NCBI RefSeq assembly: GCF_963676685.1
Contig: NC_092347.1
Location: 89,342,001-89,406,000, forward strand
Source: Mytilus edulis
Lineage: Eukaryota
Direction of reading: 5' to 3'
DNA length: 64,000 nucleotides
Shown here: one piece after another, positions 18,496-64,000 of the stretch
How the letters are laid out: each line of letters opens with the position of its first letter
Numbering within the stretch: the stretch's first letter is position 1
Program-made: the position numbers and the translations under genes
The notes under the pieces: model-generated
What the model was told of the DNA's origin: nothing
What the model saw: only the letters and a program-made list of their open reading frames with translations
Databases searched by the model: none

Positions 18496-19429
18496 CGTGG
18501 TAATACTTTTAAACCGTTGCCTCTTATCTTTTGTGGTAAATAATAACCTTCCATAATTTTACAAACTCTGCCGCCTCGATCTCTGTTACATTTTAACGTT
18601 TAGTATTTTGTATAGTTTGATTATGTCACCTCCGATCCTTTTATAATAAAGGAATGATAGATTAAATTTCTGTATTTTTTCTTCGAAGTGAAGTTATTTA
18701 ATCTTGGTAGTTGTTTCGTTGCCCGTCAATGCACTTTCTCAATCATATGCATGTAAATATATTTTATTGTATATGGATGCCATACTGAGTTTGCAAACTC
18801 TACATGTGTTCTTAGAGTCAAGTGTCTTGTATAGTGGTGCATATATGTATCTGTATCAAAATAAATCTTACTTTCTCTTAAAGAGTTTGTGACCATTGCG
18901 TAAAATATGTATTTGCTTAGTGTTCCTTGAAAGGTAGAAATGTCGAAGAAACATAAAATTATATTACGTGAGTGAAAATTTTAGAAACTATAAGTGGATT
19001 AAAATAGCAGATAATCATGTTGTGTTGCATGTTTGGTCTCTGATATCACTGCTGCATGGTGGACGCAGCGGGGGTCCACGAGCATATTACTTTTTCAGTT
19101 GTCAGTAGTTATCATTGGTATGGATACAATCTGTAAATTTTCTGCTCTTAATTTTCGATTTATGTATAGCAATTACTAAAGAATGTTCTGCAGTAGGCAA
19201 GGATGGCTTTGCCAGACACAGACTGTCCGATTTTATGTATGTTGGCATTGGCTTTTGTTGTAGTTCAGTGTTTATGTTGTTCTGTTGTTGTTCTTATAGT
19301 GCATGTGTTTCTTTCGGTTTTACTGTTTGTTACCCGGGTTTGTTTTTACTTAATCGAATTAAGACTTTTGGACAGCGATATACTTCTGTTGCCTTTATAA
19401 ACCGTTTATGGCACATTTTCTTAAGTTTT

Positions 19430-20330
19430 GACTTGTAATGCTCTCAAACTTCGATTAGACCTTTCAGCTATTTTTATTCGGAGCGTCACTGGTGATGTTT
19501 TATGTAGACAAAACGATCGTCTAGAGTAAAACAATAGACCACTTTCGAGTTCATCCGTCACCGGAAAAAACTCGTCAATTATACGCGCCTTTATCATCGT
19601 CATTTGTGCGTTTAGGGGCGTCGTCACTTCCTTCCAATGTTGAGCGAGTGGTTTGGAAAACTATAATTCTATATTGTACGAATTATTCGGCAAATTGAAT
19701 TCTCAAAATTGACAATCAACACTGCTGTCATTAGGGAAATGTCAGTAAGTACCTACAGAGCAACCATTATTTCTAGTTTATCCTGCACAAAGACGATCAC
19801 TAAGACGCTTGATGAACGTAAATAGTGCAGGGATACAGGCGAGCCCCTCTATCTGGTAAATGACGTCATAAAGGCGTGTATAATTGACGAGTTTTTGCCG
19901 GTGACGGATGAACTCGAAAGTGGTCTATTATAAGCCTGGTACTTTTGACGAAATTTTACAACCACTGGGTCGATATCACTAGGTTGGTGTCACAGGCACT
20001 CTTCTCAGAAAAAAAAAATTCTATATAAAGGTATATTGGGAAACAAATCTGAGACGAGTGCCTGTGGTTGGTGTACATTTTTCTTCATCCAGTAGTCAGC
20101 AATTGGTATTGACATTGATAACCACAGTTAGGGACGTTTTTTGTATATTTTTAGTATTGTTTTGAAAAGTTTTGAAATCCTCCATACTAGACAATTTTTC
20201 GACCCACGGCTTGCTTTTGCCTTCATAACTTTATGCTATTCGAGTGGAACTGATGGGTCTTATGAAGACGACACGCGCTTCTAGCATAACAAATTGTAAG
20301 TCAAGTTTTCCAAAGGTGCAGTTAAATTCT
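19430..20330 (+). repeat. Degenerate tandem retrozyme-family copies interrupted by a MITE
   Basis: Decayed hammerheads at 19481-19527 and ~20243-20288; accactgggtcgat, ccagtagtcagc segments shared with the 354-nt unit. Confidence 0.6.
19535..19927. mobile_element. MITE with ~70-bp TIRs
   Basis: tagaccactttcgagttcatccgtcaccgg...ccggtgacggatgaactcgaaagtggtcta. Confidence 0.85.
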
Positions 20331-22543
20331 TGTCTTATTGACGACAGGCCAACATCTCTTTGATGAATTTAGTTTTGTGTTCAGTGAAAAGACGTACTAT
20401 AAAAAATCTTGAAAAATCTATTGAAGATGCGTCGAGAGATATTCCCATGTGAGTAAATAAAATTTGTCTCGAGAACAAAGCAGAACGCAGAAGAGCTCAA
20501 AAACTCGTTCAATGATATAAACGTTTCCCAACAAAGAAAGAAAAAAAATTGATTAATCTACGATGCAAGAGCGGTACAAACACGGTGTTTTAGTTTTAGA
20601 TATACCTTCGGTTGGTTATTTTGAATGACCATTTTTTGTTGTTGTCTTTATAAATTGTAAAAGACATTAATAATTGACCTTCTATCATATATCATCATTA
20701 GATACTATACATTATATACGCAATCAAACGAATTATATAATTCAATGACTTTTTTCCTACCTATACATGACATGTACGAGAATCATGAGTCATTGGTGCA
20801 AACAATAAACTCATCATATACACCCTATTTATAATTTTGTACGCAAAATGCGTGGTTCGTCTTAAAAAAAAGTAAAATAACAAAAATACAGAACTCCGAG
20901 GAAAATTCGAAACGGCTATTCCGTCATCAAAGGGCTAAATCAAACACTCAAACACATCAAACGAATACTAAAATAAAAAATATCAACTGTCCTATTCCTG
21001 ACATACATCTGGCGTTCAATATATTATTATAAGTATGGTTTATGTAATGAGTTATTCCATATTGTGCCTTTTGTAAGTCCATGAGGGTCTGGATCGAGGG
21101 CCCTATATTCTACACTATAAGCCTTTATATGTAATGCACAATATTCTCTATTCTTTATATTTTTGCACCCAAAACAAATCATTTTCTATTCATTACTACT
21201 TTGTCTGTTTTCTCTATTTTTCCTCCTACAAAAGATACAACAATGATACCAGAATAAGTAAAGTTAAAAAGACCGTATACAGTACGAAGCTGGAGAACAT
21301 CGAGAACCCAGTGTTCCGAAAGATATTGCCAAACTTTTTTCTGGGGAAGAACGTTCTAAGTAATTTTAAATAAGTTGTTTTATGTGTATTATTCTTCGTA
21401 GAAATAACGATAATGTAAACTTTTCATTATTGATTTATTTCAGTCACTGCAGCCAAACATTTCACTTAAAACAAAACGTCTAAATTAAGCTTTTCTTCGT
21501 GTAAATTTTCATGACAAGGAAGTTAGCATTTTGGATTTGATTGGATATTAAACTGTATCACATGCAAGTTATTGATATACCAACATTTAAGTTTTTGTTA
21601 AAAGTGTAGGTATGACCTGACACAAACTTTACCTGTAATGTGATAACAGGTAACAACATTTGTACTTAGATTTAAATTAAACAAAACAGTCCAAGGTATA
21701 TCGAAATGCTAGGATTTATACTTCCTTATACGAAAAGAATGTGGTTTTTACCCTTTAGTCAATGGTAAGAAATTTATCATTTATTTCGAAGATTTGAGAA
21801 GATTTGTTTAAAAGAAATAACTTTTACCATTTCCTTGTTGAACAAAGGTCACATATTTTCAGTCATTTCTTGTTTCTACAGTACCTAAACAAAACTATAC
21901 CATACGATTTAGTAATGACTATAGGGACTTTAACAAAACAACTGTGATAACACAATGATCATACACTATAAATAGATTATAATTTTTATTTTCAATGATA
22001 ATAGTAAATAATTTATTAATCTGTTTGAAATTGTATTTTTTGCTTATTTACAATATTTATGCTGGTTATTTCAACAAACAACTTCCTTATCAAGAATTAA
22101 ATTTTATTTGTTCAACGTAGAAGTTGGATTCAGTCTCTCAAGTACTATTAAGATATAGTCATTAAGTATTGAAGTACTTATGCGCAATTAGTCATCTAGT
22201 TATATTTTTAGAACAGTAAAATTTGATGACCAAATGTAGGAGAGATTTACATGTACTTATTAAACAGAAGATGATTGTTGTTTACATGTTTATGTATTAT
22301 TTGTGTGTATATACATATTTTGTAATTTTAATGTTCATATTTGGCAACCTTTTAAATATTGTATCGACATGATACGATATGAAAGAAGGAAGGATTATGA
22401 AAACTGATCTTTCGTCTGTTCTCACGTTTTTTTACATGTACATCCAAAAATATTTTATTCGGTCATTTACATGATTTGCTTATCCTTCTGATACACCTGA
22501 GATCATCCCCAGATTTTGATATGATTGGTTATAACCAATCTAA

Positions 22544-24476: not shown

Positions 24477-25035
24477 AATTTGTATAAGGTGTATTTTTCT
24501 ATCTTGAAGGCTTTTAGTTCTAGCACTGGATCGATACCTCTATCGTTACTTATACTAGTACTTGGTAACCAGTTTTTTAGCACTCTCGTTTGATATATAG
24601 AGATTAATACATGGCCTTTTCCATATCAGCCTGGGTATCATCCCGAGACCCCCATATCAGCCCGAGACGGTTTAGTACTTGCACCTGATATGGGTTATCA
24701 GCCCGGGTGGGAAGATATGGCTTGTGCACTTCCGCCCATTACACATATGCAAAAGCTATCATATTAATGCTAAGTATATGATAAATGCTTATATTTGCAC
24801 TGTCACTTGTTAACCAAATTTGATACTCGAACTTCTCTGCATCGGGTATAGATTACATGAGCTGTATTTGGAAAAACTTTTCGGAATTTTGTGTCCTATG
24901 CTTTTCAACTTTGTACTTTATTTTGCCTTTGTAACATTCATCATTCGAGCGTCACTGGCAAGTCATTTGTCGACGACAAGCGCGTATGGCACGGATACAA
25001 AATATCAATTATGGTATCTGTGATGAGTTTATTAT

Positions 25036-26221: not shown

Positions 26222-29200
26222 CACAACAGAAAAGTACTGAAACTGTAAACATAGCACGAAATGTACATATAACAAATGGTATACAATACACTATGTGTTA
26301 TTTCCATCACATAGTCATGTTTAGGTGGAAACATGAATACTGTTATAAAAAGTAAACAATTAAGGTCCATCAGAGGAATTGCCAAGGTCAGTTACTAGTA
26401 TATGAAAATATGCAATCTTTCAAATAAAGTGACACGTTAGTTTACCGATATTCAAATCTCATAAATCTCACAAAGAGTAATACTAGCAGTGCAAGAATAA
26501 GTATGATAACGGTGTGATGATAAAAGTGATACACTTATGTGATTTTTAGTGTGCAGTTCTCTGCAATAGGCGTGTGTGCGGCAGTTTCGCATACCACTGT
26601 TCCTTCTATCACAGGATGAATACCTCTATGATTTCTGTATGAAGTATTTACTTCTATTGTTGCTGTCACGATGTAGATATCACTTTTTATATTATCACAG
26701 GGTGTATACATCTGTTGATACAGTCACTGGGTAGTTACCTCTATTGGTATTTCCACTGGAAAATACCACTATTGGTACTGTCAGAGGGTATGTAACGTGA
26801 TGGAATACCAATTACATATATTTTGACGTTTTTTGTTTCACTTACGTTTATTTAAATAACAAACAAAAGTTTTCATCCTGTCTTTATTCTTTAGGTTTTC
26901 ACTATAGAATTCCATATATTTAATTTTGAAATCATACTTTATTATAAAACAATTGTGTTGAGCCGACAAACGTGCGACTCAAGTTTGTTCTGTAATGAGG
27001 ATTACATGCTTCACTTTACATCTGTTCAATCTAAAAAGTGATGTTTTGTACTATTTCTCAACATTTTGAAGACAATTTGAGAATAGCCCCTGCATACTGT
27101 GCATTTTGTAGAAAAATGAAATTCTCTTAGGTTTAATCAAACAAAATTTCTACATAAAAAAATGCCTGTACCAAATCAGGAATATGACAGTTTTTACGCG
27201 TTATTGTGATGTGTTTGAGCCTTTAATTTTGCCATTTGATCAGAGACTGTCAATTTTAAATTATCCTCGGTGTTCATTTTTGGGGGGATTTTACATATTT
27301 TTACATATATTAAAAATAAGTAGATTATTGTCAATAGGACAACTATTCATAAAAAAAAGTTATATAAGTACGGCTATTAATGGCATGACATGACAAATAT
27401 GAAACAAATCAATTGAGAAAACTAATTAATCACAAAACAGTTTTCGAAAAACCAAATGTGACAGACATGAACCAATGACAACCACTGTACTACAGGCTCT
27501 AGGCTAAAGAGAGGCACATAAAGAATGTGGCAATGTTAAACACGTTTTTAGCGCTAAACAAATATTTGTTATAAATTGCTCAATAATATGATTAAAGGTT
27601 GATATTTTGTGGACGTCGCACGAGACTTTTCCGTAGATTATACTTGACTAGCATTTTTGGTGTATATTAAGTTACATGTATTTTGAAAGACGTGCATAAT
27701 GGCAAATTATAAAAATTATACAAGTTGTTTAATTTTTAAAAGAATCTGTCAGATTTATACTGAGTTTTGTTTCTCAAAATATGTACAAATTCGGTGCTCT
27801 GTGCAATTTGGGTAGTGTGCTTATACATTTATTGGTTATATTATATGATAGAAATATTGAAATTATTCAATTATTATCTATTGACTTCTCAGTTTTCATT
27901 CAATATGTTTGATCTCAATATTCATGGGATATGCTTCAGTGTTATTAAGGACGAAAGAATGGATTTTGATCATAATTCATTAAAAAAGTAAACAAAAAAA
28001 AACTGTCTGATTTCGGTTGCATAATAATGAAAGAAAATTAACATGCTAAGTAAGCTCAAAGACTCATTTCAAGGATAAATGAATACAAATATATGTAAGA
28101 GGTATACACCAGTGACGGCACAAAACTGTATAGCTGAATTGCAGTAATTGTAAAAGATCATATGCATAGAAATTAAAGCAGACATCTAATTTGCACTTTT
28201 TAAGATGAAAATTTAATAAAAATGTACTTCTTCAGTAATTTTATGGTGAGCTGTATTTCTTGGAGTCGTCGTGATAGATTTTTGTTGATTAAGTCGCAAA
28301 TTAAAAAGTACTACAATTTATAATCTGCATCTAAAGAAATAATAGGATAAAAAGATCAATATTACAACCAAGATTTAATGCAATACATTATTTTCAAACC
28401 TTATATATTGTTCCACCTAATTTGAAAATAATATGATAAAACATTTCTTTAATGCCTGGAAAAAATTTAATTAAGCTCACTCGGTGAATATACTTATCCA
28501 GTATTTTTGTAAAAACAAAAAACACTTTGTTATATGACATACTTACACCGGTTAAGTTGGTAAGCTTAACGATAAAGATACACTAAAAGCACAACGACTG
28601 TATACGTTTTTGCTGCCTAGAAACATTGTTATTGTGATTCGTTTTCATTCAATTTATTACTGCATGAATAGTTGCAGTGGCTTTTAATTGCTCGGATATT
28701 GAGTCCGCAATGCTCTACAATTTCATTCTTTATTAAGCCTTGTTAACTTTTTTTTTATTCGAGCGTCACTGTTGATTCTTTTGTATACAAAATGCGCGTA
28801 TGGTGTACACAATCTTTATCCTGGTATCTATAATGAGTTTCCTTACAGTAGACATTAAGTCTTTCTTTTATATTTATATATTTATGTTACATCATTCATA
28901 CAAATGTAACATTGAACTGTAGTCGACAAATTTATTTTTTATTATTGATTCAATCTTTAACGCATTATTGATCACGACTAAGTTTGATTTTTTTTGTAAA
29001 TATTTTTGTTAGTCTTGAAAAAAAACATATTTACTGCATAATTTCAATGTATAAAATTGTTTTTGAAAGTAAATTTTGAACTTTGAATGTTAAAACTTAA
29101 ATGATCTTCCGGTTTTTAAGCGATTCAGTGTTTTAAAGGTTGTAAATTTTAGCATCAGATAAGAAACACGATTACAACTCACTATTAAAAGAGAGTAGTT

Positions 29201-31482: not shown

Positions 31483-34400
31483 GTAATAAAATTTTATTTA
31501 CATTTTAAAGTATAGGTAGTGGTAATAAAAATCAAAGATGATAAAGCGAAGAAAATATCTTTCAAATCAACTTTTAACATTCCAGGTTTCAGATTAATAT
31601 CGTATATGAAAGACAATTGATGAGTTGATTTAAATAACGTTTTGTTCTGAAAAAAAACTTTCATGAACATTTCACTTTTTGTTGGATTTAAATCAAGAAA
31701 TATTGTGTATTTTGTCTTGTATTATAGGTTGTCAAGACTTGTTGAAGGAAGCCATTTCAAATTGCGGTTGGGTACGAAAACAACATTTTGCCAGTAAACT
31801 TAAATTATTCAGATGTAAGTCTACAAATCAGTTGACATATTGGTAGTCATTTTTTTAGAATAAAAATGAACGCAATTTGTGCATTTTTATTTGCAAACTT
31901 GACAGTTTGTATGAAATAAAGCCATGTGGTATGAATGCCAGTGATACAACTATTCGATATAGTCTTAATGATTGTTTGCCCTCAGTCACGATAACATTTC
32001 AAATAAATAAAGAGTTAGGTTCATCTAAACAGTATCTGTTATAAGAAATTAAAGGATACAAAGTATTTCAAAATATATTCGAAAATACAACAGATCACGC
32101 TAATCGTATTAAAAACTTATTGTATGATATTTCTTTTGGGTTCATCACATTCCCATATGTGTCTACAAATTGTCGTTCCTTTATGATTTCCTTATTTAGT
32201 TTCTATGACTTTTCATCTAGTTTCTACGTTGTTTTCAACAACTGATTCCTTTACGGTTACATTTAGCTTTGATATGTTTTATAGGTACTTTCCATCTGGT
32301 TTCAGTTAGTGTGGATATTTATGATGCTGTATCTTTCTGGATTAATCTAGCTTTAAATATTCTCGTGCAGTTCCTTTCTGGATTCATTCAGCTTTCGAAT
32401 GTTTGTATGCTGTTCCTTTCTGGACTAATTTAGCTCTAAAATGTTTTTCCTTGAGTACTTTCTGGATAACTCTACATTTAGAATGTTTTGATGCCGTTCC
32501 TTTCTGGAACCTATTTATCTTTAAAATTGTTTCATGCAGTTCCTTTCTTGTTAAGTTTAGATTCTGTAGGAGTAATTCTATGTTGATTAGGTTTTTTTTA
32601 TTCATTCTGCTTGGCTAATTTTGCAAGAATAACTACATGTATATTTGTATTCACTCTAATGTGACATTCCTTCTGTGCTGTTCATTCCAGGGCCTAAAGT
32701 ATATATGATCCTGAGCAGAGGGTGTATATATTACTTTCGAAATGAATACTGCAAAACTGCTTCAGGAAAGTTTTCTTTATTTGGATTCAATACGTAAGTA
32801 CTGAGATATTTCTTAAAAGACTTGTAATGAAGCATATCAAACTGAAAGTCTGTATCACCAATATCGACAGAAATTTATGATTTAACTTACACAAATTTTA
32901 TTATTATTAAATGGCATTCGAACAAAATAACGTAAAATTTATGGTAATACATATTTAAAAGAAATTATCAATTTATAATAATATTGTCTATTCGCCTTTG
33001 ACTAACGACAGCACATTTATTCTTTGTAATAAAGAAAAGAAATAAATTGAATAATTGTGGTATCTCTGATAAATTTTTCAAATTACAATTCTGTACACGA
33101 TGGTCTTAAAGTATAGATTCTGGGTACTGACATTGTTTATCATCTTAATAACGTCTTATAGTATTCTTTTATTTGTTTTTATGAATATAATTTTCACTCT
33201 TTATTCTGTTTTTGGTGATATCCATTTGACGTGGCTTTGTACTTATGGATACCGTCATTGTTTTATTGTGCTATGGTAAATTTTTGTATTGTTGTCTTTC
33301 ATTTTTGATTATGTAATGTGGGTATATGCCTTTTGTGTTTCTATTACGTGTTTTTTTTTATAGTGATTAAGACTATAACACAATGTTGACTGCTGTATTC
33401 CTTTTTTGGAATTTTTACCTATTATGTTTGTTTGTTTTGTTCACACATCGTTGTCTATATATTGAATTTATGCGACTGTCATAAAAAATAAAGGTTTACC
33501 TAGCTGTAAAACCGGGTTTTATTCACCCATATCACCATATTCTACATAAGAAAATGCCTGTACTCGGTCAGGAATATAACAGTTGTTATCCATTCGTTTG
33601 ATGTGTTTGAGCTTTTGATTTTTGCCATTTCTCTACGGACTTTTCGTGTTGAATTTTCCTCGGAGCTCGGTATTTTTGTTATTTTACTCTTTACACACTA
33701 TGAAATATCAATTAAAAAGGCATAACTCTAACAAAAAGGAATATTACTGTAAATGTATTGTTTGTGTGAAGTACAACTAGTTAGAAAAAAACAAATTGAG
33801 TCTTACCCTGGGCAAAGACGTAGACCATGATTTTTGTTTTTCGATGCTCAACTTCGTGATTGATTTTTTTCCAACTGTTTTTGATTTGTATGTGATTAAT
33901 GTGTCTTATGTAAATGAGTATTCCGCGACTTTCGAACTGAATTATAGGTCCTGTGTCTTTGTTGTTTGGATTTTTAAAAAACAAATTAGTATATAATTTC
34001 TATTTTCCAAGTTTAACTAAATTGAGCTGCAAACAAGAGATACTTACTCTAAAATTTCTCTCACATTTCAAAACATCAGCAACAAAATTGTATATATTGA
34101 CAAGTAATGGTAGTAGTTATAAAAATTGATATAGCTAAGGGGAGGGTTGGACGCTTACTCGTATGTTTAAAACCGTCAGATTATTAATGGGCGTGTTCTA
34201 AATCGCGAGCCTGTAGTGCATTGGTGATCGTAGGTTGCTGTTTGTCTTTTATACTTTTAGACAGTTGTTTTATTACTGATCAGGTCAACGATCGTTTTAT
34301 TTATTTCGCATTGATTTCAGGGTTGCAAGAGCTACAGAAGTTAGTGATGGGGAGGCAATGTATGCTTTCAAAATAAACCACACCCACCCTGAAGAGTTTA

Positions 34401-37400: not shown

Positions 37401-40400
37401 GGTCAAAGAGTTCTTCAACTTGTTCTGTTTTTACACAACCTAGTATTTCTAGAATTTCGGATTTGGGCGTTCTGTATGAAAGTAAATACAGGAAAAAGAT
37501 TCGGGCGTATATATTTTTTTAAAGGGTCTTTTTATTAATTTATCATTTTATAATCAAATATGTTTTCATATTATACAACCTTAATAGTCAATGTACTGGT
37601 TTTACAATCTTTACCTAACCTAAAGCACCTATATGGGATAATTCATATCTTTAATCCTACTTCAATATTTATATGCTTCTTCCTCAATAAAATAATATTT
37701 TTTGATAAATAAATATGTGTTCATCCACATGCCCTATACATCAGGTTATAAAAAATCAAATGTATTCTTAGTTTGACACATTAATGATATTGAAGCTTAA
37801 TGCATAAATAAACAAAATTTCTAAGAGACAGACACAGTTTCGGGGAAAATTCCTGGTAAAGGACAGGGACATATATATATATGACAGGAATAAACTTCTA
37901 TGTACCGGTCCACTTTATCTGTGAATGAAATAAAACGGCTCAAGTTAGCATACACAATATGTAAATAAAATGCAACTATTAAATGAACTTATTATGTCTA
38001 TTTAAGCATCCGATGATGAAGATATACCTAATGAACCACCGCCTGTGCCACCAAGATTAGCGAATGCGGAACCAAACCCAAAGACTAAGAGAAAGAAGAA
38101 GAGAAAGAAGAAAAAGGAAAAGATGGATGAACTAGACCAATTACCAGGTATAGTAGTTTTTAACCTAACAAACAAAGATAAGTAAACTAAAAATAAGATA
38201 TCGGGCTATCAGAACTTCAAATTAAAAACATGTTGTTTGGTAAAAACATGGAAAAGGGAAATATTAGGGATGAACAACCATCTTTTATATTACTTAAAGT
38301 CATATGACACTTCAAATTAAGAACAAAATTATGAATAGGTTTTTTATAACTATGTGGCTAGTTGTACATATACTTTTTTTCTAAAGAAAATTCTATAATT
38401 TGTCCAAATTTTGAAAAACTTTACTTTTTTTAATTGTTTGCTTCGCCGATATGTTTTTCGTATGCAGTGAACTCAACTTGACCTTTATCGTAAAATTCTG
38501 GTGATTACAATACGACAATTTATAAGCTGCCACATTTTCACATCATAACAGACCAAGAGAAGAAAAGAATTACTATTATACGATATGGATGCGTAAAATG
38601 ATAAAATCGTGCACAGAAACTACGTTTGTGATAAATACATGCATTTGTTAAGAATTGAATAAACATTATTTTGCACCAGTCACTCGTTTCATATGACTTT
38701 AAATATAAGGAAATACTATAGAAAGCCCACTTTTTGTCTAATCTCTAAAGCTATACGAATTCGTTGTTTTATCGTTAGATTGATACATTGATAAACCTTC
38801 AAGCAGGTTTTGCATTATTATGTTTCATTCTTATTTGAAACCTTCACTAAGCTGTTGGGTGCTATGTTCATGAGGAACACCTGATATATTCCATGGTTAC
38901 TATGGGGCTCATGTTGTTTATCTTAGAATTGTGTAATATGATGTAGAATTCTGTTTATGTTTTCGTCGTTTGTCATAGTTTTTTCTGTCGGTTTTTCTTC
39001 AACATTTGAATTTAAATCGTTTATCTAGTTTCCTTTTGTTTTTAATATCACTCACCAAAACTGTGCTGAATAGTATTCAACTATTGAGATGTTTGAGAAC
39101 CTTTTTATTGCATTAATTTTTACTGAAAATAACTGAAAGTAACAAAAAAAAGTGAAAATCATGCGTTATAAATTTCAGTTGTTCGAAGCACTTTTCTCGA
39201 TTTACCTCCCTCAGAAACGCTCAAAGTCGAACCTTAAAAAGTCAAGGATTTATAAGATGAAAAAAATGGAGAGCTTTACCAAAAAGGATTTTAAAAATAG
39301 CCAAATGCGTCTAAGGTCAACTTTGCCTGAGGAAGTTGAAACCTTAGTATCATATAATTTCAAACTTATCACTGTCGGATTTACATTTTTCTTCAAACTT
39401 GCAGATATATCAAAAGTTGCAGTTTCACGCACTGAGAGTGCAGCAAAACTGCAGGCAGATGCCATCTCTGTGAGTATAATCATTATGCACGAAACGCGTT
39501 GACTGTCATCAGGTATTCTCGATAGACAGAGCTCGAGTTAGATGATGTCTAAATTTTAAAAAAAAACATCATTATAAAGAAGGACATAAATAAGAAGAAG
39601 AAAACTGACGATATATGGTCTAAAAAGAAAATGATGAAGAGAAAATGAATTGTTTAAACAACACTAAATAGACGAATAGCTGACTAAGCAACCACGAAAT
39701 AAGAAGAAGAAAACTGACGATATATGGTCTAAAAAGAAAAATGATGAAGAGAAAATAAATTGTTTAAACAACACTAAATAGACAAATAGCTGACTAAGCA
39801 ACCATGACCCAAACCCGACACCATGATTTATATTTTGGGTTGAAAGTGAACCCTACTCCAACTCGCCTGAAATGCCTGGACTTAGCAGCACAACTGCATA
39901 GTTTATTAACCAAAATGAAAGTGTATCAAATATATATTAGTGAAACAATGAAATTGGTGTAAAACATAACATCTTTTACGTATTCTTTGGGTATTCTGTT
40001 AACATCTAACCTCCTCACAATCCCCCTTAATGGTTACAATATTGACAGTATCAAGTTTAATGCACCAGAATCGTATTTCGACAATCAATGTATCTTCAGT
40101 GACTCTCGTGGCCAAAATATGTGAAAATCCATTGAATGGATGACACAAAAATGTAGATGCTTTGATGGGTAAGATATGAAAATAGAAAACGCTGGTCAGT
40201 TTTAAGTGAAAAATACAAGTGATATTTGAACTTAGTTACGTTGTATACCGATCGAAACTCTACTTTTACAAAACTTTGAAGGGACATAAGAAAGAGACAT
40301 TCTTTAAATCACCTAATGCAAAAAACATCTTTAAGTGCAGTCAAGTCTGTCTCTAACTGTAAATGGTCAACTGTTTGGCTTTTAAACTATTTTTGTCTGA

Positions 40401-43400
40401 ACGTCATTGATGAGTCTAATATAGACGAAACGAGCGTCTGACGTATTAATATATAAACCTGATACCTTTGATAACTAGTTAATATATTGAACTTGTCATT
40501 TTATTTTTTTAAATTGCAGGCAGAAATGAAGAATATGTTCGGAAAGGAGTAAGTCATTATTATACCTATTCAATTAATCTCCTGTAGCATATTGAATATT
40601 TTAACACCTTTTAGTTAAACATAAAATTTAGTCTGAATACTCAAAATAATGTTATCAGAATCATTTCAACAAATCTTTAAAGTGGGAAATTAAAATCAAA
40701 ATACAAGAGTATGGGTTATGTATATTTATTGTGTTTTTTATTGGTATTGTACTAAATTTAAGGGAAATTGTCAAAAATTGTCCAATTTTGAATAACATCA
40801 GCACGCACTTTCGAATAAAAAGAATCTAACAGATAAACGTATAACTAGAATACCAAACTTAAATATAAATTCAAAAGGTGAAAGTCCACAAAAGCAGACA
40901 AAATCAAATGTTATTGAGCAACAGAAAAAGAACCGTCATAACACGTCTTGTTTGTTGCCAATAAACATACTTAAATGACCTATGATTTGCATTCCGGAAT
41001 AAATAAAATAAACTTACAATAGCATAAATCTCAATCTTTTGTACGTTCTGTTGTAAAGTTGTTTCTGTTGCAGTCATTCTCCCTATACAATTACATTAAT
41101 AATAACTCATATTGAATATCTATTCTCCAATATGTGTGTTATCAAACAAAACCACGAGACTCGTCAATAAGTTTTGACAGTTGAAATGTCAAAAAGGTGT
41201 GATTAAGCCACTAATGTAGCATGATGTGCTTATCATTCCGGGAAACAGATATCATATCTTTTGGGTGAGCTTCGTGTTGCTTAGTCTTAAATTTGTTAGG
41301 TAGTTTGTGAACTTTTGTCCTTTTTAACCGGATTTTTAGTGACAAAAATGTCGGTTAATGAATTGGGGATGTACGGCAGGCGGGCGGGCGGGCGGGCGGT
41401 CGGGCGGGCGGGCGGCAATCAAATGTTGTCCGTGTTTAACTCATGAACCGTTCAACCAAAGCTTTTAAAATTTTAATATGTTGTTACTGACAACTAAATG
41501 AAGGTCAAGTTCAATAATGGCGATTTTGACTTTTACCGTTCAGGAGTTATGGTTCTTGAAAGATTGAAAAATGGAGTTTCCAGTCGTGTCCGTGTATTTA
41601 CGCATGAACTGTTCTACCAAAGCTTCCCTAATTTTAATATGTTGTTACTGATGACAAAATAGAGGTCAATTCCAATAATGACGATTTTGACTTTTACCGT
41701 TCAGGAGTTATGGTTCTTGAAAGATTGAAAAATGGTGTTTCCAGTCGTGTCCGTGCATTTTCTCATTAACCATTCAACCAAAGCTTTTAAAATTTTTATA
41801 TGTTGTTACTGATGACAAAATAGAGGTCAAGTTCAATAATGACGATTTTGACTTTTACCGTTCAGGAGTTATGGTTCTTGAAGGATTGTAAAATGGCGTT
41901 TCTATTCACGTTGTTGCATTTACTCATGAACCATTCAATCTAAGCTTTTCAAATTTTAATATGTTGATACTGATGACAAAATGGAGGTCAAATTTGATAT
42001 TGACGATTTTCCCTTTCACCATTCATCAGTAATGGTTCTTGTGATATTGCCAGGACACAAATAAATGTTAATAAATCCGGTTTGCTGTCGTTGTGACAGC
42101 CTCTTGTTCTGGGTTTGTGTTGCCATTTATTTCTCTTTGTTCGAGTTTGGTATGTTTCTTTGATATCTTGTGTCATTTTTAAAAAATAAATGTAGAGTTT
42201 ATAATTGGTCTAATGCCACAACTAATGAACCTTATTTTCATTGTCGATAAATATAAGTTGTATTGTACTTTTTCGTAACTTTTTTCCTTTTCTCATTAAT
42301 TTCTTAGTGTTGGTGCGAGTGAAATAGTAGAAGTGATTTTAGATAAATTTATGGATGTTTCATTTTTACTGTTAAGTTGCATGAAGGAGCGGTCAAGTGA
42401 GATGCCAAAAATATTTTTTCGAAACACGTCTTGATTTGAACTAACGACAAGGAAGTGTACGGACTGGCAACATTTATAAACTGTAAAACATTTGGTTTTT
42501 TTCTAAATAAAAGCAAGAGTAGTGTACCGATGTTCAAAATGTTAGTTAGATTTTGATTTTGTAAAAATAAAATGTGAAGAAAAGTTAAGTGAATTGTGGT
42601 TTATGACCAACTATCTTTAAACAAAACAAATTGTATTTAAACAGAAAACAAAAAAGCACAGAATCTGAACCCTCCTCGACGACGAGTCGAAACAAGAAAC
42701 AGCCGAGTGTAGAACCACCGGAAGTTGAGGATGTTGATGAGGTAATTTTATGTTGTTTATTTACGTGATTAACTTTGGTTACATGAGCTATTTATGCAAT
42801 CAAATATTTTGACTAAGTCAATTTATGAACAATAAGTGTAAAAGCTTCGTTTGTAGCAATTGTAGGAGATATAGAGCAGAATAATTTTTCAGTTATTGAG
42901 TATTCAGTTATGTATTATACAAATTGTGCTCCAATATGATATTCTGCAATATTTCGGACTTAATTAAATGTTTGGCTTTGGTTGTTAACACTACAAGTTT
43001 TGTTGTTTCTAACTTGGGTTGTCTGTATTTAAAGGGCTCAGATAGGTTAATTTCCCACAGTATCATATGGACACATATTTTCGGTTACTTTTAATTTAGT
43101 ATAACTTGATATCAACAGGTCAACTGATTGCAAATAAAACACACTTGTCCGTTATCAAGCAGTTTTATTTGTTGAAAAGATATATCGCAGCCGATGTCGG
43201 CTAGGTAGTTTTACTGCATATTGTAAACTCTTCTTAAATAAATTCTTGTTTAGAATCTTTAAGAAAATCGTTAGGTATTATCCAATGAAAATGGAAGAAG
43301 TGAGCAAAGCAGACCGATACTAAATGTGAAAAAATATCGAAGTGAAATAAAGGTTAGCTTTAACAAGGTCTACTTCAAATCTGGGTTTATTACTGAATAT

Positions 43401-48798: not shown

Positions 48799-51496
48799 TT
48801 AAAGATATGTGTAACTAAGAATTGCAACATTTATAACTAATTAATCTGCAAGCCCTCGTACAACATCACCAAGAGATGAAAGTAATGTCATATCAGGCCA
48901 TAGTATACTTACAACTGGTGGTATATTGGTACCATTTATAAAATTATATAAATCCTAATCTGATTCTGGAAAAATCATAGTTCATTATTGTCCTTCATGA
49001 AAGGGGGCGGTTTACGAGAATAGCCCTATATGAATATGTCGTTGGGGTGAATTTCTAGGAAATAAATGAAAACGAAAAACATCAGTCTTATTAGACTTAT
49101 ACCGTTTTAATTTCGTTAACATTAACATGATAACACCAGTAGAGGTATTATCAATCAAATTCTTAACAAACACATATTCATTTCGTTAGAATAATCTAGA
49201 TAACTGTCGGATTTACTCATCACACTACTTGATACTAATCATGACTTAGTGTTGCTTTGGTTGTTTTTTTGTTGGTACACTAATTATGAATACCAAAAGA
49301 AATCATCTTTCAATTAATCAAGATTAATCAACAACAAACATTTTCTTCTCACTTCTTTTCTTATGTTACCAGTGAGGACTTGATACCCGTATGTGTATAC
49401 AATGTATTGATTGTGATAATAACTACTACAATAACATTTGGTGATTATACATATTGGAAATTTATGTTTTCATATTTAGAAAGTTTATATAAATACATAT
49501 TAACTTTGTAAATACATTATTATGTTTTTTTATATATAAATATGTCAATAAAGTCTACAGATTATTTAATATGCCAAGATAATATTAGTATGTTGCTACT
49601 TTATATACTTGAAAAATCAGTTCTTTTCTTTCATAATTAATCTGATCGTTATGTTAAATATGGTAAATAAATACCAAATTTATAGAGACAAGGAATACTA
49701 AACCGACACACTCTAAAAACCCCAAGATCATTTCAAAATTGAGCCAATAAAAATGAATTTCTTTGAATATGAACTGAAGGAAATGAATACATTTAGACCT
49801 GAACTTCAAGGAGATTTAGTACGTAAATTATGAATTTTACCGGGTATCTTTGATGAATTTTTACGATCACTGTTGAACTCCATTTCATGTGGACGTTTCG
49901 ATCTCAATGATTGCGTTTACATATCACTTGATCAGTAAAATGGTGAATGTTCACACTATTCTGACTTCATTAACAGCGGTGAGCACCTTAGATAGGAAAA
50001 CAAGTTAGAACTTTAGTTTCGCATTACGCTATGGTGAATTTTTCAAATATGAAATTGTTTGTACTGTAACAATGAAATCGATTTGTAGATAGCTTACGAA
50101 CAATATAGCATTCTTAGTTGGTTTGAATCAACATTAAGACTGGTTTTTGCATGTTTTTATAGGTCATCTTTCTGTTTGACAGTCAGTATTTTCTTATTCG
50201 TACCGCCCATTGATCTAGACATTATTGCAATGTTTTTCAACAAAGATTTGACGATCGAACTTTTCAAAACAATTTTATGGAAAAATAAGTTGAAATGCAA
50301 ATGATGTTTTTACCTCTTAATAGATAAATGTCTATGCTTTCAGAAAACGTATCACTCTTATTGATTGAACTTCTCCTTTGGGACAAATTTTGGGGACCTT
50401 TTTTTAATGTTTCATCTTTCCTTTTGCAATATTTCGTATCAAATAAATGCAGATTGTTGCCATGTTTCCACACAAAAAAAGAAATAATATTTCACCAATA
50501 TAGTTATTGGAAATCAAATATAACCTTATTTTTAGAAACCAAGGAAAGGATGGTGGTTAACAATCATGGGTATCAATTTAAAGTTATATTCCTAGCTGTG
50601 TATTACAACCTGACACATAAAACTGCTCCAACAGAGTTATAAAGAAAACAACTGAATTCGACTCTACACAAAGTTTAATGTCATCATCACTTATTAGTTG
50701 ACTGATACGATTTGTTGGTGTCTCATCTCACTAGCGACATGTGTCTGCAGTCTTAACCAGATGCTCTGCAGGGCGCAGCTTAATACGACCGCAGAGTTCG
50801 AACCCTGAACAGTTGGGGCTAGTATGGACACAACATTCAAGTCTGATACAGCTCTGAATTTGGATTGTAATTAAATAGTTGACACAGAATGAATGTGCTC
50901 TAAGAACTTAAACTTAAAAACTTAAAAATTTTAAATTGGACATTTACCTATTATGGTGCAATATCCAACATCTAAATACATGGTTAGATTCAGCATATCA
51001 AAGAACCCCAAGCATTCAATTTTTGATGAAATCAGACAAAGTTTAATTTTGGACACCGATTTGGACCAACTTGAAAACTGGGCCTATAATCAAAACTTTA
51101 AATACATGTTTAGATTTAGCATATCAAAGAACCCCATGGATTCAATTTTTGTTAAAATCAAACAAATTTTAATTTGGGACCACGATTTTGACCAACTTGA
51201 AAACTGGCCCCATAACCATAAATCCTAATACATGTTTAGATTCAGCATATCAAAGAACCCCAAGGATTCAATTTTTGTTGAAATCAAACAAAGTTTAATT
51301 TTGGACCCCGATTGAGACCAACTTGAAAACTGGACTCATAATCAAAAATCTAAGTACATGTTTAGATTCAGCATATCAAAGAACCCCAAGAATTCAATTT
51401 TTGTTAAAATCAAACTAAGTTCAATTTTGGACCCTTTGGACCTTAATGTAAACCAATTTGATTATAGTTATCAAAGATACCAGGATTATAGTTTAG

Positions 51497-51543
51497 TACG
51501 CCAGATGCGCGTTTCGTCTACATAAGACTCATCAGTGACGCTC
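51497..51543 (-). ncRNA. Minimal type I hammerhead ribozyme (core intact, C.A mismatch in stem III)
   Basis: gagcguca CUGAUGA gucuuauguagac GAAA cgcgca UC^uggcgua; stem I gcguca/uggcgu. Confidence 0.8.
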
Positions 51544-51850
51544 AAATCAGAATATTTATAAAACCAATCAAGTGCAAAGTTGAAGAGCATTGAGGATCCA
51601 AAATTCCAAAACGTTGTGCCAAATACGGCTAAGGTAATATATGCCTGGGGTAAGAAAATCCTTAGTCTTTCGAAAAATTCAAACTTTTGAAACAGAAAAT
51701 TTATATACATGACCACATTATTGATATTCATGTCAACACCGAAGTGTTGACTACTGGGCTGGTGATACCCTCGGGGACGAAACGCCCACCAGCAGTGGCA
51801 TCGACCAAGTGGTGTTAATAGTTATCAAAGGTACCAGCATTATAATTCAG

Positions 51851-51897
51851 TACGCCAGACTCGCGTTTCGTCTACATAAGACTCATTAGTGACGCTC
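51851..51897 (-). ncRNA. Minimal type I hammerhead ribozyme, core mutated (CUAAUGA)
   Basis: gagcguca CUAAUGA gucuuauguagac GAAA cgcgag UC uggcgua. Confidence 0.7.
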
Positions 51898-54369
51898 AAA
51901 TCAAAATATCTATAAAGCCAAACAAGTACAAAGTTGAAGAGCATTGAGGATCCAAAATTCCAAAACGTTGTGCCAAATACATACACAGTTAGATTCGGCA
52001 TATCAAAGAACCCCAATTATTCATTTTTTTATGAAATCAAACAAAGTTTAATTTTGGACCCTTTGGGCCCCTAATTCCTAAACTGTTGGGACCAAAACTC
52101 CCATAATCAATCCTAACCTTCCTTTTATGGTCATAAACCTTATGTTTAAATTTCATAGATTTCTATTCACTTATACTAAAGTAATTGTGCGAAAACCGAG
52201 AAAAATGCTTATTTGGGCCCTTTTTTGTCCCTAATTCCTAAACTGTTGGGACCAAACCTCCTAAATAAAGGCAACAGTAGTATACCGCTGTTCAAAACTC
52301 ATAAATCCATGGACAAAAAACAAAATCGGGGTAACAAACTTAAACCGAGGGAAACGCATTAAATATAAGAGGAGAACAACGACACAACACTAAAATGTAA
52401 CACACACAGAAACGGACCAAGCATCAGACAAAATCCCACGAGAACAACAAATATAACATCAAAACCAAATACATGAATTTGGGATAGACAAGTACCGTGA
52501 CACGTCTTATCGCAATGTGAAATAACACTCATAAATAAGAGAAAACAAATGACGCAACGTTAAAATGTAACACACACAGAAACGAACAAAAATATAACAA
52601 TGGCCATATTCCTGACTTGGTACAGGACATTTTTAAAGGAAAAAAATGGTGGGTTGGACCTGGTTTTGTGGCATGCCAAACTTCGCACTTTAATGGCAAT
52701 GTTAAATATAACATTGAAATGACACCATAATATTACAGGACTACAATGCAAACAAATAGGAGAACGTATTAGACAAAGAAACACAAGATTAATAGATAAC
52801 AAAAAGCATCAGGTTTAAAATTCAATACGCCAAAAACGCGCCACGTCCACACAAGACTCACCAGTGACGCCCAGATATAAAAGATCGAAAGTTAAAAAAA
52901 GTACAAAGTTGTACAGCACTAAGATCAAAAGTTGAAAAAGGTTGTGTCAAATACGGCTATGTTTTTATGCTTGGGATAAGAACATCCTTATTATTTAAAA
53001 CAATTAATGCTATTGCAAACAGTAAATTTTATCAAATGAATATAAAGATATACATTATGAAACTGAAGTATTAACTTATTACAGAAAACAAAACCCGAAT
53101 ACATAATGCAAAGACCAACACAGAATAGACAAACCCGACTCAGTCCAGGCCTCAACGCAATAAATCATAAAAATGACGTCACATAACCAACCTTCCTTTT
53201 GTGGTCATAAACCTTGTGTTTAAATTTCGTAGATTTCTATTCACTTATACTATAGTTCTAGTGCGAAAACCAATGTGTCTTCGGACGCGGACGAAGAGGC
53301 CAACGCCATACCAATATACGACCGCAAAATTTTTTTGCGGTCGTATAAAAAGTAAAATCATAAAAATACTGAACTCCGAGGAAAATTCAAAACGGAAAGT
53401 CCCTAATGAAATGGAAAAATCAAATGACAAAACATATCAAACGAATTGACAACAACTGTCATATTCCTGACTTGGTACAGACATTTTCAAATGAAGAAAA
53501 TGGTTGATTAAACCTGGTTTTAAAGCGCTATATATCACTTGTATGACTTAAAATACCGGTCAGTCGTCTGATCTGTAATTTGACCGATTGTGTCCAATAA
53601 TTGTGACATTTTGACTGAATATTAACTCGTATATCGGGTGATGTATGCATAGCTAGAGACCCTACACCGTTGACGCACCAGACCTCGTTGCTTTCGGAGT
53701 TATTTTGTATTGTTATCTTGATGTGTCTCTTCCTACTCGTGATTTGAACATCGGTAAACTTCTGTGTTTTTAGTTTTTGATTTTTTTCTGTGTTCCGTTA
53801 TTTCGTTGTTTCTGTGTTCTGTTATTTCGTCGTTTTCTTCTTACAGTTGATGTGTTTCCCTCGGTTTTAGTTTGTAACCAAGATATGTTTTCTCTCAATC
53901 TATTTATGACTTTTGAACAGCGGTATACTACTGTTGCCTTTATATGTCACCAGCTCATTACTTAGCACTCTTATGTCGCTATGAGAACATTGATAAAGTA
54001 ATTTTCGAATCATTCACTTGTCATGTAAATGTAAAATATTATTCGAAACAAGAAGTTGTTCTACTACCATCTATTTTTAATTCAATTTCAATAATTATGT
54101 TCTAACAGAACAATGCTATGAACAATAACAGGTTTACAAGTTTGGACACTAGACGCACATCTTGTCCTTATAAGACTCTTCATAATTAAGGGTAAAGAAA
54201 ACAATTAAAATAAACATTATGACATGTGATCAAGATGCAGATATTTCACAAAAATGTGAGAAAAAAAATGTTAAGAAAACATCGATGAAACAAAAATATT
54301 TAGTTTTCTTGATGTCATCGAAAACTTAACATTTCAATTTTCTAATAGCATTTGTTTTTCATACTTTAT

Positions 54370-55000
54370 AAACACCAGGTTTCTAATTTGTTACGCTAGA
54401 CGCGCATTTATTCTACATAAGACTCATTAGATTGTCGAATAAAAAAAAGTTAAAAGGAAACGTTTCGAACATTTGTGCCAAATACCGCTTTTTTCATATG
54501 TGCCTGGCGGTAGAAAAACCTTCAGTGCTTCGAGTAATTATTATTTTTATAAACAGAAAATTTACAGAAAATGAACATCTTAAAAATAGTTCATGCCAAC
54601 ACAAAAGTGATAACTACTAGGCTGGTGATATGCATTGGGACGAAACGTGAACTTTCAGTCATATAGCTCCATCTGTTGTTAATACTCAACAAAGATTCCA
54701 GGATTGCAATTTGTCAAGCCAGACGCTCCGTTCGTCTACTTGTCACTCATCAGTGGAGCTTGATTAGAAGAGTTGAAAGACCAACTAGGCACGAAGTTGA
54801 AGAGTATGTCAATCAAAAATTAAAGTCGTACCGTTAAAGCGTATATGTCGGAGTGTAATAACCTTAATGTTTGGAGTAATCCATTAAAATATAGAGATCA
54901 TTCTGATAATGATATTTCGTATCTACTCGACAAGTGATTCCAACTCGTACGAAACGTCCACAAGCAGTGGCATCGTGTTAACCTCATCAAGGATATCAGG
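54370..55000 (-). repeat. Older, degenerate tandem copies of the same hammerhead-bearing repeat
   Basis: Decayed motifs at ~54393-54432 and ~54716-54760; gctggtga..ggacgaaacg and cagtggcatcg segments shared with 51750-51810. Confidence 0.65.
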
Positions 55001-55304
55001 CTTAAATATGATTTACAGCAGACAATTGTACCTTGTCAATATATTGGAATTTTATGCGACTGTCATACAGGTGAGATATATCTATCTATAAAACCAGGTT
55101 TAACATATCATTTTCAACATAAGGAAATGCCTGTACCAAGAAGGGAATATGACATTTGTTATCCATTCGTTTGATGTGTTTGAGCTTTTGATTTTTTCAT
55201 ATATAAAGGACTTCCCGTTTTGAATTTCCTTCGGAGTTCGGTATTTTTGTTATTTATTTTTTCTATCTTCATAATACTAATTAATGGCATTCTAATCAAA
55301 CAGT

Positions 55305-60577: not shown

Positions 60578-61619
60578 TTAAGAAAATGCCTGTACCAAGT
60601 CAGGAATAAAGCAGTTGTTTTCCATTATTTTGATGTGTTTGAGTTTTTGATTTAGCCATTATCAAGGGACTTTATGTTTTAAATTTTCATTGGAGTTTGG
60701 TACTTTTGTTACTTTACTTTTTTCATACATTAATTGGTTAACTTCATTTTGAATATGTAAAGTAAATTCATGGCTGATGTGACCACAAACTACACTTGAC
60801 CAAAATTTTAACAAATCTTAAATCAAAACTAAAATCTGATACAGAACTTGGAGAAAGATGGATTATTTAACTGACAGACTAATGGGCCAATGGACACATA
60901 GACTGGAATCAGAATTCCCGTCTTCTCTCATGGACAGGGCAATAAAAAGCTATCCACAATACAGATGATTGATATCAATTCAAATCTGAAGAAATTGTCT
61001 TATCCAAATGAGTTCAGTTATCAAAATATCATAATATAACAAGATCTGTCTATCCTAAAAATGTTATTATATGATGCCTTTAGCTGCAAGTTCTTCTCTC
61101 ACCCTGTTCATATAAGTAGAATCTGGATAGCCAAATCTGGAAAAAAATAAAAACATATATAACAAGATGTCACATGGTTAAGTTTGGTGCCATATATTGA
61201 TGTGATATGATTATTATCTTAATTTACAGTGCCTCAAGATTGGTGTATAAACCTTTACTAGATTAATGTACAGTTTCACTATACATTTGAACATGAAGAA
61301 GCTCTGATTTTGAAAAATTCTTCATCAATGTGTTAGGGAGAGACAGATAGAAGGACAGAAAGAGGTGAATCATCCTTTCCAATGTGGAAGATGTAAAAAA
61401 AAAGAATGGCAATTTTTTGTAGAATAGGGTTCTCAGTTCCAATAATAGTAAGTACTTGAATACTCAGAAATCTGCTATAAGTGTAAAAAAAAAATAAGTT
61501 TTTTTTTTCTTTCTTTATTTGCCATGACATAACTTTTTCCTACTTAATCCTGAATTTTATGAATGCTATCATTTACTTTGTCAGTCCCTAATCTACAAAT
61601 CAAAACTAGTTTTATTGAT

Positions 61620-64000
61620 GATATAACTTACTTGGTTGGTCCACCATCCACATTGGTTTTATGGTGGATACAACTTAATTGGTTGGTCTCCCTTCCATAT
61701 TGGTTTTATTGTGGATAAAACTTACTTGGTTTTACCCCCATCCACATTGGTTTTGTGGAAGATATAACTTACTTGGTTGGTCCCCCATCCACATTGGTTT
61801 AATGGTGGATAAAATATACTTGGTTGGTCCCCATCCATATTAGTTTTATGGTGGATAAAACTAACTTGATTGGTCCCTTGTTCACATTGGTTTGATGGTG
61901 GATATAACTTACTTGGTTGGTCCCCAATCTATATTGTTTTTGTTGTGGATATAACTTACTAGGTTTATTCCCCATTCACATTGGTTTTGTAGGGGATAAA
62001 GATTACTTGGTTAGTCCCCCATCCACATTGGTTTTGTGGTGGGTATAACCTACTTTGGGTGGTCCCTCATCCACATTGGTTTTATGGTGGACAAAACTTA
62101 CTTGGTTGGTCTTCCTTCAACATTGTTTTTGAGGTGGATAAAACGCACTTGGTTGGTCGCTCGTCCACATTGGTTTTATGATGGATATAACTTACTTGAT
62201 TGGTCCAAATCCACATTGGTTTTGTAGGGGATATAGCTTACTTGGTTGGTCCCCCATCCACATTGGTTTTGTGGTCGATATAACTTACTTGGTTGGTTCC
62301 TATCCACATTGGTTTTGTGGTGGATATAACTTACTTGGTTGGTCCCCAATCCACATTGGTTTTGTGGAAGATATATAACCAACTTTGGGTGGTCCCTCAT
62401 CCACATTGGTTTTATGGTTGACATAACTTACTTGGTTTGTCTTCCTTCCACATTGTTTTTGTGGTGGAAAAAACGTACTTGATTGGTTCCCAATCCACAT
62501 TGGTTTTGTGGTGGATATAACTTACTTGGTTGGTCCCCAATCCACACTGGTTTTGTGGTGGATATAACTTACTTGGTTGGTCCCTAATCCATATTGGTTT
62601 TGTGTTGTATATAACTTCTTGGTTGGTCCCCCATCCATATTGGTTTTATGGTGGATATAACTTACTTGGTTGGTCCAAAATCCACATTGGTTTTATGGTG
62701 GATAATACATACTAGGTTGGTTCCCAATCCACATTGGTTTTATGTTGGATAAAACGTACTTGGTTGGTCGTTCGTCCACATTGGTTTTATGGTGGATATA
62801 ACTTTCTTGGTTGGTCCCCTGTATAAATTGGTTCTGTAGTGGATATAAATTACTTGGTTGGTCCCCCATCATTCATATTATTTTTGTGGTGGATATCACT
62901 TACTAGGTTTATTCCCCATCTGCATTGGTTTTGTAGGGATATAGCTTATTTGGTTAGTCCCCCATCCACATTGGTTTTGTGGTGGATATTACCTACTTTG
63001 GGTGGTCCCACATACACATTGGTTGTATGGTGGACATAACTTACTTGGTTGGTCTTCCTTCCACATTGTTTTTGTGGTGGATAAAACGTTCTTGGTTGGT
63101 CGCCCATCCACATTGGTTTTATGGTGGATATAACTTACTTGGTTGGTCCCCAATCCACATTAGTTTTGTGGTGGATATAGTTTACTTGGTTGGTCCCCAA
63201 TCTTCATTGGTTTTGTGGTGGATATAATATACTTGGTTGGTCCCCAACCTACATTGGTTTTGTGTTGGATATAACTTACTTGGTTGGTCCCCAATCCACA
63301 TTTGTTTTGTGGTGGATATAACTTACTTAGTTGGTCCCAAATCCACATTGGTTTAATGGTTGATATAACTTGCTTGGTTGGTCCCCCATCCATATTGGTT
63401 TTATGGTGGATGAAAATTACTTGGTTGGTCCCCAATCCACATTGGTTTTATGGTGGATATAACTTACTTGGTTGGTCCCCCATCTACATTAGTTGTGGTG
63501 GATATAACTTACCTGGTTGGTCCCCCATCCACATTGGTTGTATGGTGGATATTACTTACTTGGTTGGTCCCCCATCCACATTGGTTGTATGGTGGATATT
63601 ACTTACTTGGTTGGTCCCCCATCCACATTGGTTTGATGGTGGATATAACTTAGTTGGTTGGTCACCCATCCATATTGTTTTTAAGGTGGATATAACTTAC
63701 TAGGTTTATTCATCATCCGCATTGGTTTTGTAGGGGATATAGCTTACTTGGTTGGTCCCCCATCCACATTGGTTTTGTGGTGGATATAACCTACTTTGGG
63801 TGGTCCCTCATTCACATTGGTTTTATGGTGGACATAACATACTTGATTGGTCTTCCTTTCACATTGTTTTTGTGGTGGATAAAACGTAATTGGTTGGTCG
63901 CCCGTCCACATTGGTTTTATGGTGAATATAACTTACTTGGTTGGTCCCCATTCCACATTGGTTTTGAGGTGGATATAACTAACTTGATTGGTCCCCAATC
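61620..64000. repeat. 47-bp tandem array (~50 copies, runs past the window end) with higher-order structure
   Basis: ggatataacttacttggttggtcccccatccacattggttttgtggt. Confidence 0.96.

Follow-up and report, generated by a model that had tools for sequence, protein, structure and literature searches.

A mutated retrozyme copy in Mytilus edulis and the hairpin domain that its family has in common with the Penelope-like element Naiad

Can a hammerhead repeat in the blue mussel genome still release a circular RNA, and which enzyme copies such RNAs back into DNA? The question is raised by a 64,000-nt stretch of Mytilus edulis DNA (NCBI RefSeq assembly GCF_963676685.1, contig NC_092347.1, positions 89,342,001–89,406,000; hereafter the window), in which a retrozyme, a tandem repeat carrying hammerhead ribozymes, was predicted on the minus strand at 51464–51980. 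We consider it likely that the locus is a decayed, probably inactive copy of 1.46 units, whose intact kin cut themselves, circularise and are copied by the reverse transcriptase (RT) of the Penelope-like element Naiad, starting beside a hairpin domain common to both. Somewhat less firmly, we hold that mussel retrozymes are chimeras of a hammerhead module and the RT start domain of the hammerhead-free Naiad, whose protein would start inside the circle at this domain and roll round it.

The locus at 51464–51980 and its family

The insertion has the following parts.

51464–51980, minus strand: family A retrozyme insertion, 517 nt (1.46 units), with its RNA-sense 5' end at 51980 and 3' end at 51464; monomer 92–95% identical to other genomic units
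51852–51895, minus strand: upstream type I hammerhead bearing G5A in the core (51887) and one altered letter in helix III (51861), with cleavage predicted at 51858/51857; likely inactive
51498–51541, minus strand: downstream type I hammerhead with an intact core and pair 15.2-16.2 mismatched as C.A (51506), its cleavage predicted at 51504/51503; likely impaired
51504–51857, minus strand: monomer of 354 nt reaching from one ribozyme to the other (family mode 355)
51464–51503, minus strand: tail of 40 nt between the cleavage site and the fixed 3' end; the GUCGAUG anchor of the missing next domain would end 19 nt further on

Both hammerheads lie where the original prediction placed them, 354 nt apart within a direct repeat (168 nt, 92% identity), and its cleavage sites and its monomer running from 51857 to 51504 hold as well. 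The cores start at 51889 (CUAAUGA) and 51535 (CUGAUGA), and helices I and II are paired in both. The suspected impairment is supported by the G5A change and the C.A mismatch, the letter at 51506 being atypical (G in 49 of 50 other monomers); to these we add the change at 51861, absent from the earlier list, which disrupts the third helix III pair (G.A) of the 51889 ribozyme. G5A serves as an inactive control in PMC4075628, where G5 changes are listed as lowering activity more than 100-fold. An active copy would have both flanking hammerheads intact; here one carries G5A and the other the C.A mismatch. The window copy is probably dead because of the G5A core change, the helix III mismatch and the rarity of its own alleles in RNA sequencing (RNA-seq) reads. 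Since both its ribozymes are mutated, the 354-nt self-excised circle predicted from this locus is unlikely.

The form of the ribozymes differs from the first description. They had been called minimal, a term that denotes the absence of helix III in the relevant part of PMC4209133. The window motifs keep a helix III of 2–3 bp with a palindromic loop and a helix II of 4 bp, which is the canonical metazoan or invertebrate form, and lack the traits of Penelope-like minimal hammerheads (helix III absent, long helix II, dimer needed). Cleavage as dimers, also claimed, is not supported: a published mussel repeat with a single ribozyme cleaves alone, and the dimer requirement in that report concerns amphibians (PMC7229834). 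Against Rfam covariance models, the window copies score 20.3 bits with Hammerhead_1 (E 0.35) and 27.4 bits with Hammerhead_3 (E 0.012), both below the gathering score, while intact family copies at another locus reach 33.0 bits with Hammerhead_1 (cut-off 34, E 4.8e-5). In local folding energy the hammerhead does not stand out (z +0.4 to +0.8).

The window locus is an ordinary copy of an already described kind of element. The intact 32-nt ribozyme motif has 8,118 exact genomic copies, versus 0 for a reversed-pattern control, and an element search of the genome gave 79 matches (40 of 9,788 candidates scored). Monomer length has its mode at 355 nt (40 of 51 full family A monomers), helix III is ACGCGCGU in most of these 51, and arrays span 1.5 to >7 units. 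The 2 kb around the element are 34% GC, and the longest reading frame of the window element is a stop-to-stop frame of 111 residues. Like metazoan non-LTR (non-long-terminal-repeat) retrozymes, the family has a type I hammerhead per unit, tandem units within 150–450 bp, GC below 50%, dispersed multiple copies, no coding capacity and transcription. The assignment to the Mytilus kind thus stands, with a hammerhead in each 354–355 nt tandem unit, thousands of copies and transcription; the family fits the published Mytilus non-LTR retrozyme and is likely identical with the published clones.

Four ribozyme-bearing families, A to D, with units of 350–364 nt, occur in the genome. Family B (~364 nt) has the same ribozyme as A, family C (350 nt) has 1,694 exact domain matches, and family D (~350 nt) has 1,596 exact ribozyme matches. 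The families are mutually only 70–85% alike. The helix sequences of C and D differ from those of A yet pair, and all three hammerhead helices stay paired across A, C and D. Older remnants of the retrozyme group, 70–89% identical, lie in the window at 52787–53081, 54374–54975, 40372–40482, 24845–25024, 28696–28829 and 19481–19515. Different families are adjacent or nested at L208:1500-1990, L094 and L279, by template switching or nested insertion.

A hairpin domain in common with Naiad

The insertions of all four families end at a fixed point, followed in the complete unit by a hairpin domain of ~60 nt.

51753–51818, minus strand: hairpin domain, a putative RT start signal, with P1 (51810–51804 with 51759–51753), P2 and the inner hairpin P3; window changes at 51807 (P1) and 51785 (P3)

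A homologue of window 51818–51753 sits immediately 5' of the Naiad start codon, and the Naiad terminal repeats halt directly ahead of it, at the same offset as the retrozymes. This Naiad was found through a GIY-YIG search that fetched 20 regions, one of them Naiad. Its open reading frame (ORF) combines an N-terminal GIY-YIG with CxC and DKA, and it is a close match to the N-terminus of Naiad_Mgal (PMC8557442 supplement); in the remaining long RT frames of the fetched regions, either DKG or an endonuclease motif at the C-terminus is present. The domain was found at an ORF in 0 of the 19 Penelope-like regions other than Naiad, and a domain model run on all 20 found Naiad (by construction) and L169, a retrozyme remnant. 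Similarity of retrozymes to the canonical regions (DKG, C-terminal endonuclease) was confined to inserted retrozyme remnants.

Pairing in the domain is well kept. P1 and P2 cells are paired at 98% over 16 aligned sequences, in three P1 pairs Naiad and the retrozymes differ in both partners, and P3 has compensated changes among A, B and C, as read from the alignment. Intact A, C and Naiad domains fold with z of -2.7 to -3.7. The domain model also finds family D and two outside metagenome records (L266:330-720 and L262:579-656), all unused in building it, with E<=1e-13. The first record holds a retrozyme-like repeat that has a different hammerhead and lies, oppositely oriented, within Naiad-like RT sequence; judged by eye, the repeat ends at the same offset (one case).

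Insertion ends follow this domain. The 3' end falls at query 310–317 in 59 of 96 BLAST chains (95 loci), at 1–16 in 26 and elsewhere in 11; many of the 26 are copies of family B, the tail of which does not align. The 5' ends are scattered from query 26 to 355. Ends lie 15–20 nt from the domain anchor in 63/72 copies of A, 15/20 of B, 19/20 of C and 18/21 of Naiad, by a method that sees offsets of 0–25 only. For family D the position was forecast beforehand, and 16 of 24 ends fell in the 15–20 nt range. All 17 terminal copies in 0.8 Mb of unselected DNA end 14–20 nt before the anchor, offsets >20 being invisible to the method. The distance from cleavage site to anchor varies by family (59, 66, 51 and 56 nt); thus, the insertion end tracks the domain and not the ribozyme.

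It could be argued that the arrays are derivatives of Penelope-like terminal repeats (pLTRs) amplified locally by unequal crossover, with the domain as a relic of descent. Long arrays are indeed present in the genome, and the available part of a preprint (10.64898/2026.07.22.740005) shows a relation of Xenopus retrozymes to pLTRs and argues that tandem amplification was local. However, the copies number in the thousands, are dispersed, and combine a fixed 3' end with 5' ends of random phase. Together with domain pairing retained in four families only 70–85% alike, this makes the explanation very improbable.

Naiad is likely the helper of mussel retrozymes, because of the common domain, the common end offset, the absence of the domain at the ORFs of 19 other Penelope-like regions, and the internal RT initiation known for an anole Penelope-like element. 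As expected of a non-autonomous partner, the 3'-end signal and the end position are common to retrozymes and Naiad. In the anole case, the site where the Penelope-like protein of Anolis initiates reverse transcription is internal to its RNA, at a stem-loop close to the beginning of the ORF, and this site fixes the genomic end (PMC11167929, part seen). The idea of a protein-free, viroid-like mobile RNA accordingly survives in one respect: the element encodes no protein. The insertion geometry suggests an RT acting in trans, published circularisation needs a protein ligase, and there is no conserved opposite-strand ribozyme.

We propose the following course. Arrays would be transcribed, as the family RNA seen indicates, and by library convention the ribozyme strand is the probable one. 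Hammerheads would then release monomers of ~355 nt, which a host RtcB-type ligase would close, as published for M. galloprovincialis. The Naiad protein may bind the domain and begin target-primed reverse transcription immediately to its 5' side, ~40 nt past the family A cleavage site, as the fixed ends and the anole analogy suggest. A circle or an uncleaved multimer would serve as template for longer insertions, and a run of variable length would yield the observed non-integer arrays and random 5' ends. Integration would proceed with microhomology or a small deletion and without clear duplication, as seen at the window site, and the window copy would later have decayed.

Further traces of Penelope-like elements were noted. 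Fragments of the Naiad 3' terminal repeat lie in the window at 53346–53530, 55034–55262, 52605–52694, 33124–33694, 17975–18496, 20867–20966, 27128–27304 and 60582–60722. A hammerhead-like motif, unrelated in sequence to the retrozyme ribozymes, occurs downstream of canonical Penelope-like ORFs at L121:2599-2640 and L122:2598-2640, and the canonical elements L154, L155 and L159 have a separate frame of 400–425 aa upstream of the RT frame.

Template, strand and insertion site

The template was probably not a cleaved monomer in most cases. Of the uncensored insertions, 34/37 extend across the cleavage site (the set comprises 0.8 Mb of unselected DNA and bystander copies, and ~5 rows are internal copies miscalled as terminal). 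From a start ~40 nt past that site, a cleaved linear monomer would yield only ~40 nt of complementary DNA, which indicates that the template was mostly circular or uncleaved. Cleavage in vivo might have left an accumulation of 5' ends at the cleavage site; they fall at -5 to +1 of it in 3/37 insertions, with 1.2 expected (P ~0.12). In 15 of 17 multi-unit arrays a non-majority letter is common to all units, and two rare letters are common to both window units, which matches the expectation of one template. A solo 40-nt piece at window 17890–17929 (minus strand) spans exactly the stretch from cleavage site to fixed 3' end, which is the product that a linear RNA would leave after cutting itself; the excess of pieces of this kind did not reach significance.

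An uncleaved or partly cleaved linear multimer would serve equally well across the cleavage site, and the ribozyme and circle would then be passengers, as cleavage is dispensable in vitro for the anole element. The 34/37 insertions are compatible with either template, unprocessed RNA was the main substrate in the accessible part of PMC11167929, and RNA-seq reads spanning the site mostly have intact ribozyme letters. This alternative is nevertheless unlikely in our view: the ribozyme is retained, with compensated helices, in all four families, published mussel northern blots are dominated by circles (PMC7229834, part seen), and some young arrays consist of identical units with common private variants.

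Family RNA is abundant. Four RNA-seq runs were mapped on 51000–52400 at 88% likeness, with the stranded pair sampled at ~6% of each run, and family reads were abundant in three raw RNA runs. Of the contig-only runs with small word shares, one was mapped and the rest were left out of the evidence. Depth in the element interior of the two stranded runs was ~1000–1350 with the first mate plus and ~175–325 with the first mate minus, so that RNA of the ribozyme strand is probably transcribed, given the usual library convention. Reads of run X21 (first mate plus) have the letters of the family and not those of the window copy, in 838/840 cases at 51550, 1033/1039 at 51785 and 731/749 at 51887; the sampled animals may themselves be without the window insertion. 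The host repeat (window 51235–52268) is heavily represented in RNA reads, with depth to ~14,000 and one strand favoured ~20–40:1.

The strand data bear on another explanation, in which the element is a viroid-like RNA replicon and each polarity carries a ribozyme; its second hammerhead would be the following feature.

51750–51800, plus strand: antisense hammerhead look-alike with an A6G core, the reverse complement of the common domain; rejected as a ribozyme

The plus strand of family A is hammerhead-like in 4,055 exact copies, opposite-polarity reads make up about a sixth to a third in the element versus ~3–6% in the host repeat, and the published clones are heterogeneous (PMC7229834, part seen). 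Yet all 4,055 copies carry A6G, and the canonical form is present only 104 times, roughly as often as random decay would produce it. Families B, C and D and Naiad have lost the GAAAC half but retain the sense-strand hairpin, B has G.U pairs that are functional only in sense, the plus-strand fold has a z of +0.12, and the opposite-strand reads are explained by antisense copies inside host transcripts. With no conserved ribozyme in both polarities and no unusually stable rod-like circle, we regard an ambisense replicon as scarcely credible. A separate candidate, an antisense-like stretch locking the ribozyme core in the circle, was predicted for the window copy (0.82) and at <=0.05 in the other 43 of 44 folded monomers; it was rejected as a family feature.

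Several observations weigh against copying of circles by Naiad, the reading that we prefer. The common domain points to ancestry or a common signal, and not to the enzyme that acts today. The screen covered 20 Penelope-like regions and one Naiad family. The three compensatory P1 pairs amount to a single lineage contrast, and a pair-count control was not significant (180/500 shuffles). Retrozyme flanks are without (TA)n bias by eye, although Naiad reportedly favours (TA)n in many species; the accessible part of PMC8557442 reports that preference and lists none for Mytilus Naiads. When folded as circles, three monomers show no unusual stability (sense z -0.16 to -0.74, each against 40 shuffles), and the predicted circle ensembles lack helix I. 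Identity within arrays (97.9%) is barely above that between arrays (96.8%). RNA-seq read ends on the window element are not piled up at either cleavage site, and short reads do not separate circles from uncleaved multimers.

The insertion interrupts another repeat, described by these features.

51978–51980, minus strand: microhomology of 3 nt where the 5' end joins the host; host-repeat copies elsewhere hold 24 letters between 51461 and 51978
50755–53350, minus strand: host non-autonomous Helentron (HINE), with a subterminal inverted repeat (subTIR) and inverted repeat at 53315–53347, a GTCC/GTC-like microsatellite near 53282, a 126-bp array at 50963–51434 and a second subTIR at 50780–50793

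RNA-seq reads of other host-repeat copies connect 51461 to 51978 via 24 letters missing at the window locus. The retrozyme therefore apparently replaced ~24 nt, a target-site deletion. No target-site duplication was evident at the window site, nor by eye across the 95 BLAST-chain loci. The Helentron-like nature of the host, proposed earlier, is upheld by its component parts; judged by the feature list in the part of PMC7492417 seen, it has the subTIR with inverted repeat, the microsatellite, the central tandem array and the second subTIR, and a short 3' palindrome was judged by eye only. Elsewhere in the window, a second Helentron copy with 136-bp and 35-bp arrays lies at ~5945–7964, a 161-bp tandem array at 41427–42041, preceded by (GGCG)n, is probably another Helentron-type element, and >50 copies of a 47-bp tandem unit occupy 61620–64000 and continue past the window end.

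Comparison with known systems

The helper enzyme of animal retrozymes was left open in 2020. Penelope-like elements had been proposed for that role (PMC7229834), and the available text of a review of that year states that no motif indicated the helper (PMC7761336). The common domain and start position name a candidate enzyme and a signal of ~60 nt, and a start domain would also account for a circle without a 3' end serving as template. If true, no earlier cis signal would have been defined by which an animal circular RNA is copied into DNA, and the domain would provide a telomerase-related RT with a portable recognition element. A link between retrozymes and Naiad, the initiation-site mechanism and non-autonomous Naiad partners in bivalves were not found in print in a search that left most subscription papers outside its coverage.

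The closest known system is the non-LTR retrozyme of M. galloprovincialis (Cervera and de la Pena 2020, PMC7229834; clones listed as GenBank MN642551-MN642576), likewise an expressed tandem repeat of ~350 bp with low GC and a type I hammerhead, present in thousands of copies and devoid of an ORF. In the accessible part of that report, Mytilus retrozymes measure 350–390 bp, a single cloned ribozyme cleaves at ~0.1 per min, circles are abundant and RtcB performs ligation. In contrast, both ribozymes of the window copy are mutated, and we find four ribozyme-bearing families (350–364 nt) versus two there. The fixed end and the common domain are absent from the main text of PMC7229834; its supplement may already show them.

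Naiad (Craig et al. 2021, PMC8557442, part seen) resembles the retrozymes in its 5'-truncated partial tandems and lack of a clear target-site duplication, and in this genome it has the same domain and end offset. Unlike retrozymes, it is autonomous (~1010-aa ORF), is without a canonical hammerhead and carries within the domain an additional hairpin of 10 bp. Poseidon PAc of Anolis (Frangieh et al. 2024, PMC11167929) similarly starts reverse transcription internally, downstream of a hammerhead, at a stem-loop that is AC-rich. It belongs to a different clade, however, and the accessible part describes it in vitro on linear RNA, without a circle or a non-autonomous partner.

Vertebrate retrozymes have been described as pLTR derivatives (Li et al. 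2026, 10.64898/2026.07.22.740005), which parallels the relation of mussel retrozymes to Penelope-like termini. That preprint, in the part available, treats retrozyme origin by sequence similarity in frogs only; its sequence evidence is from Xenopus, with no molluscs and no start-site signal, and Naiad is detected only in coral. With Avsunviroidae and other viroid-like circles (PMC7761336, part seen) the mussel family has in common a small non-coding circle with a hammerhead, the circle being predicted here. It differs from Avsunviroidae in having no conserved ribozyme of second polarity, ordinary circular-fold stability, genomic encoding and the insertion geometry of a retrotransposon.

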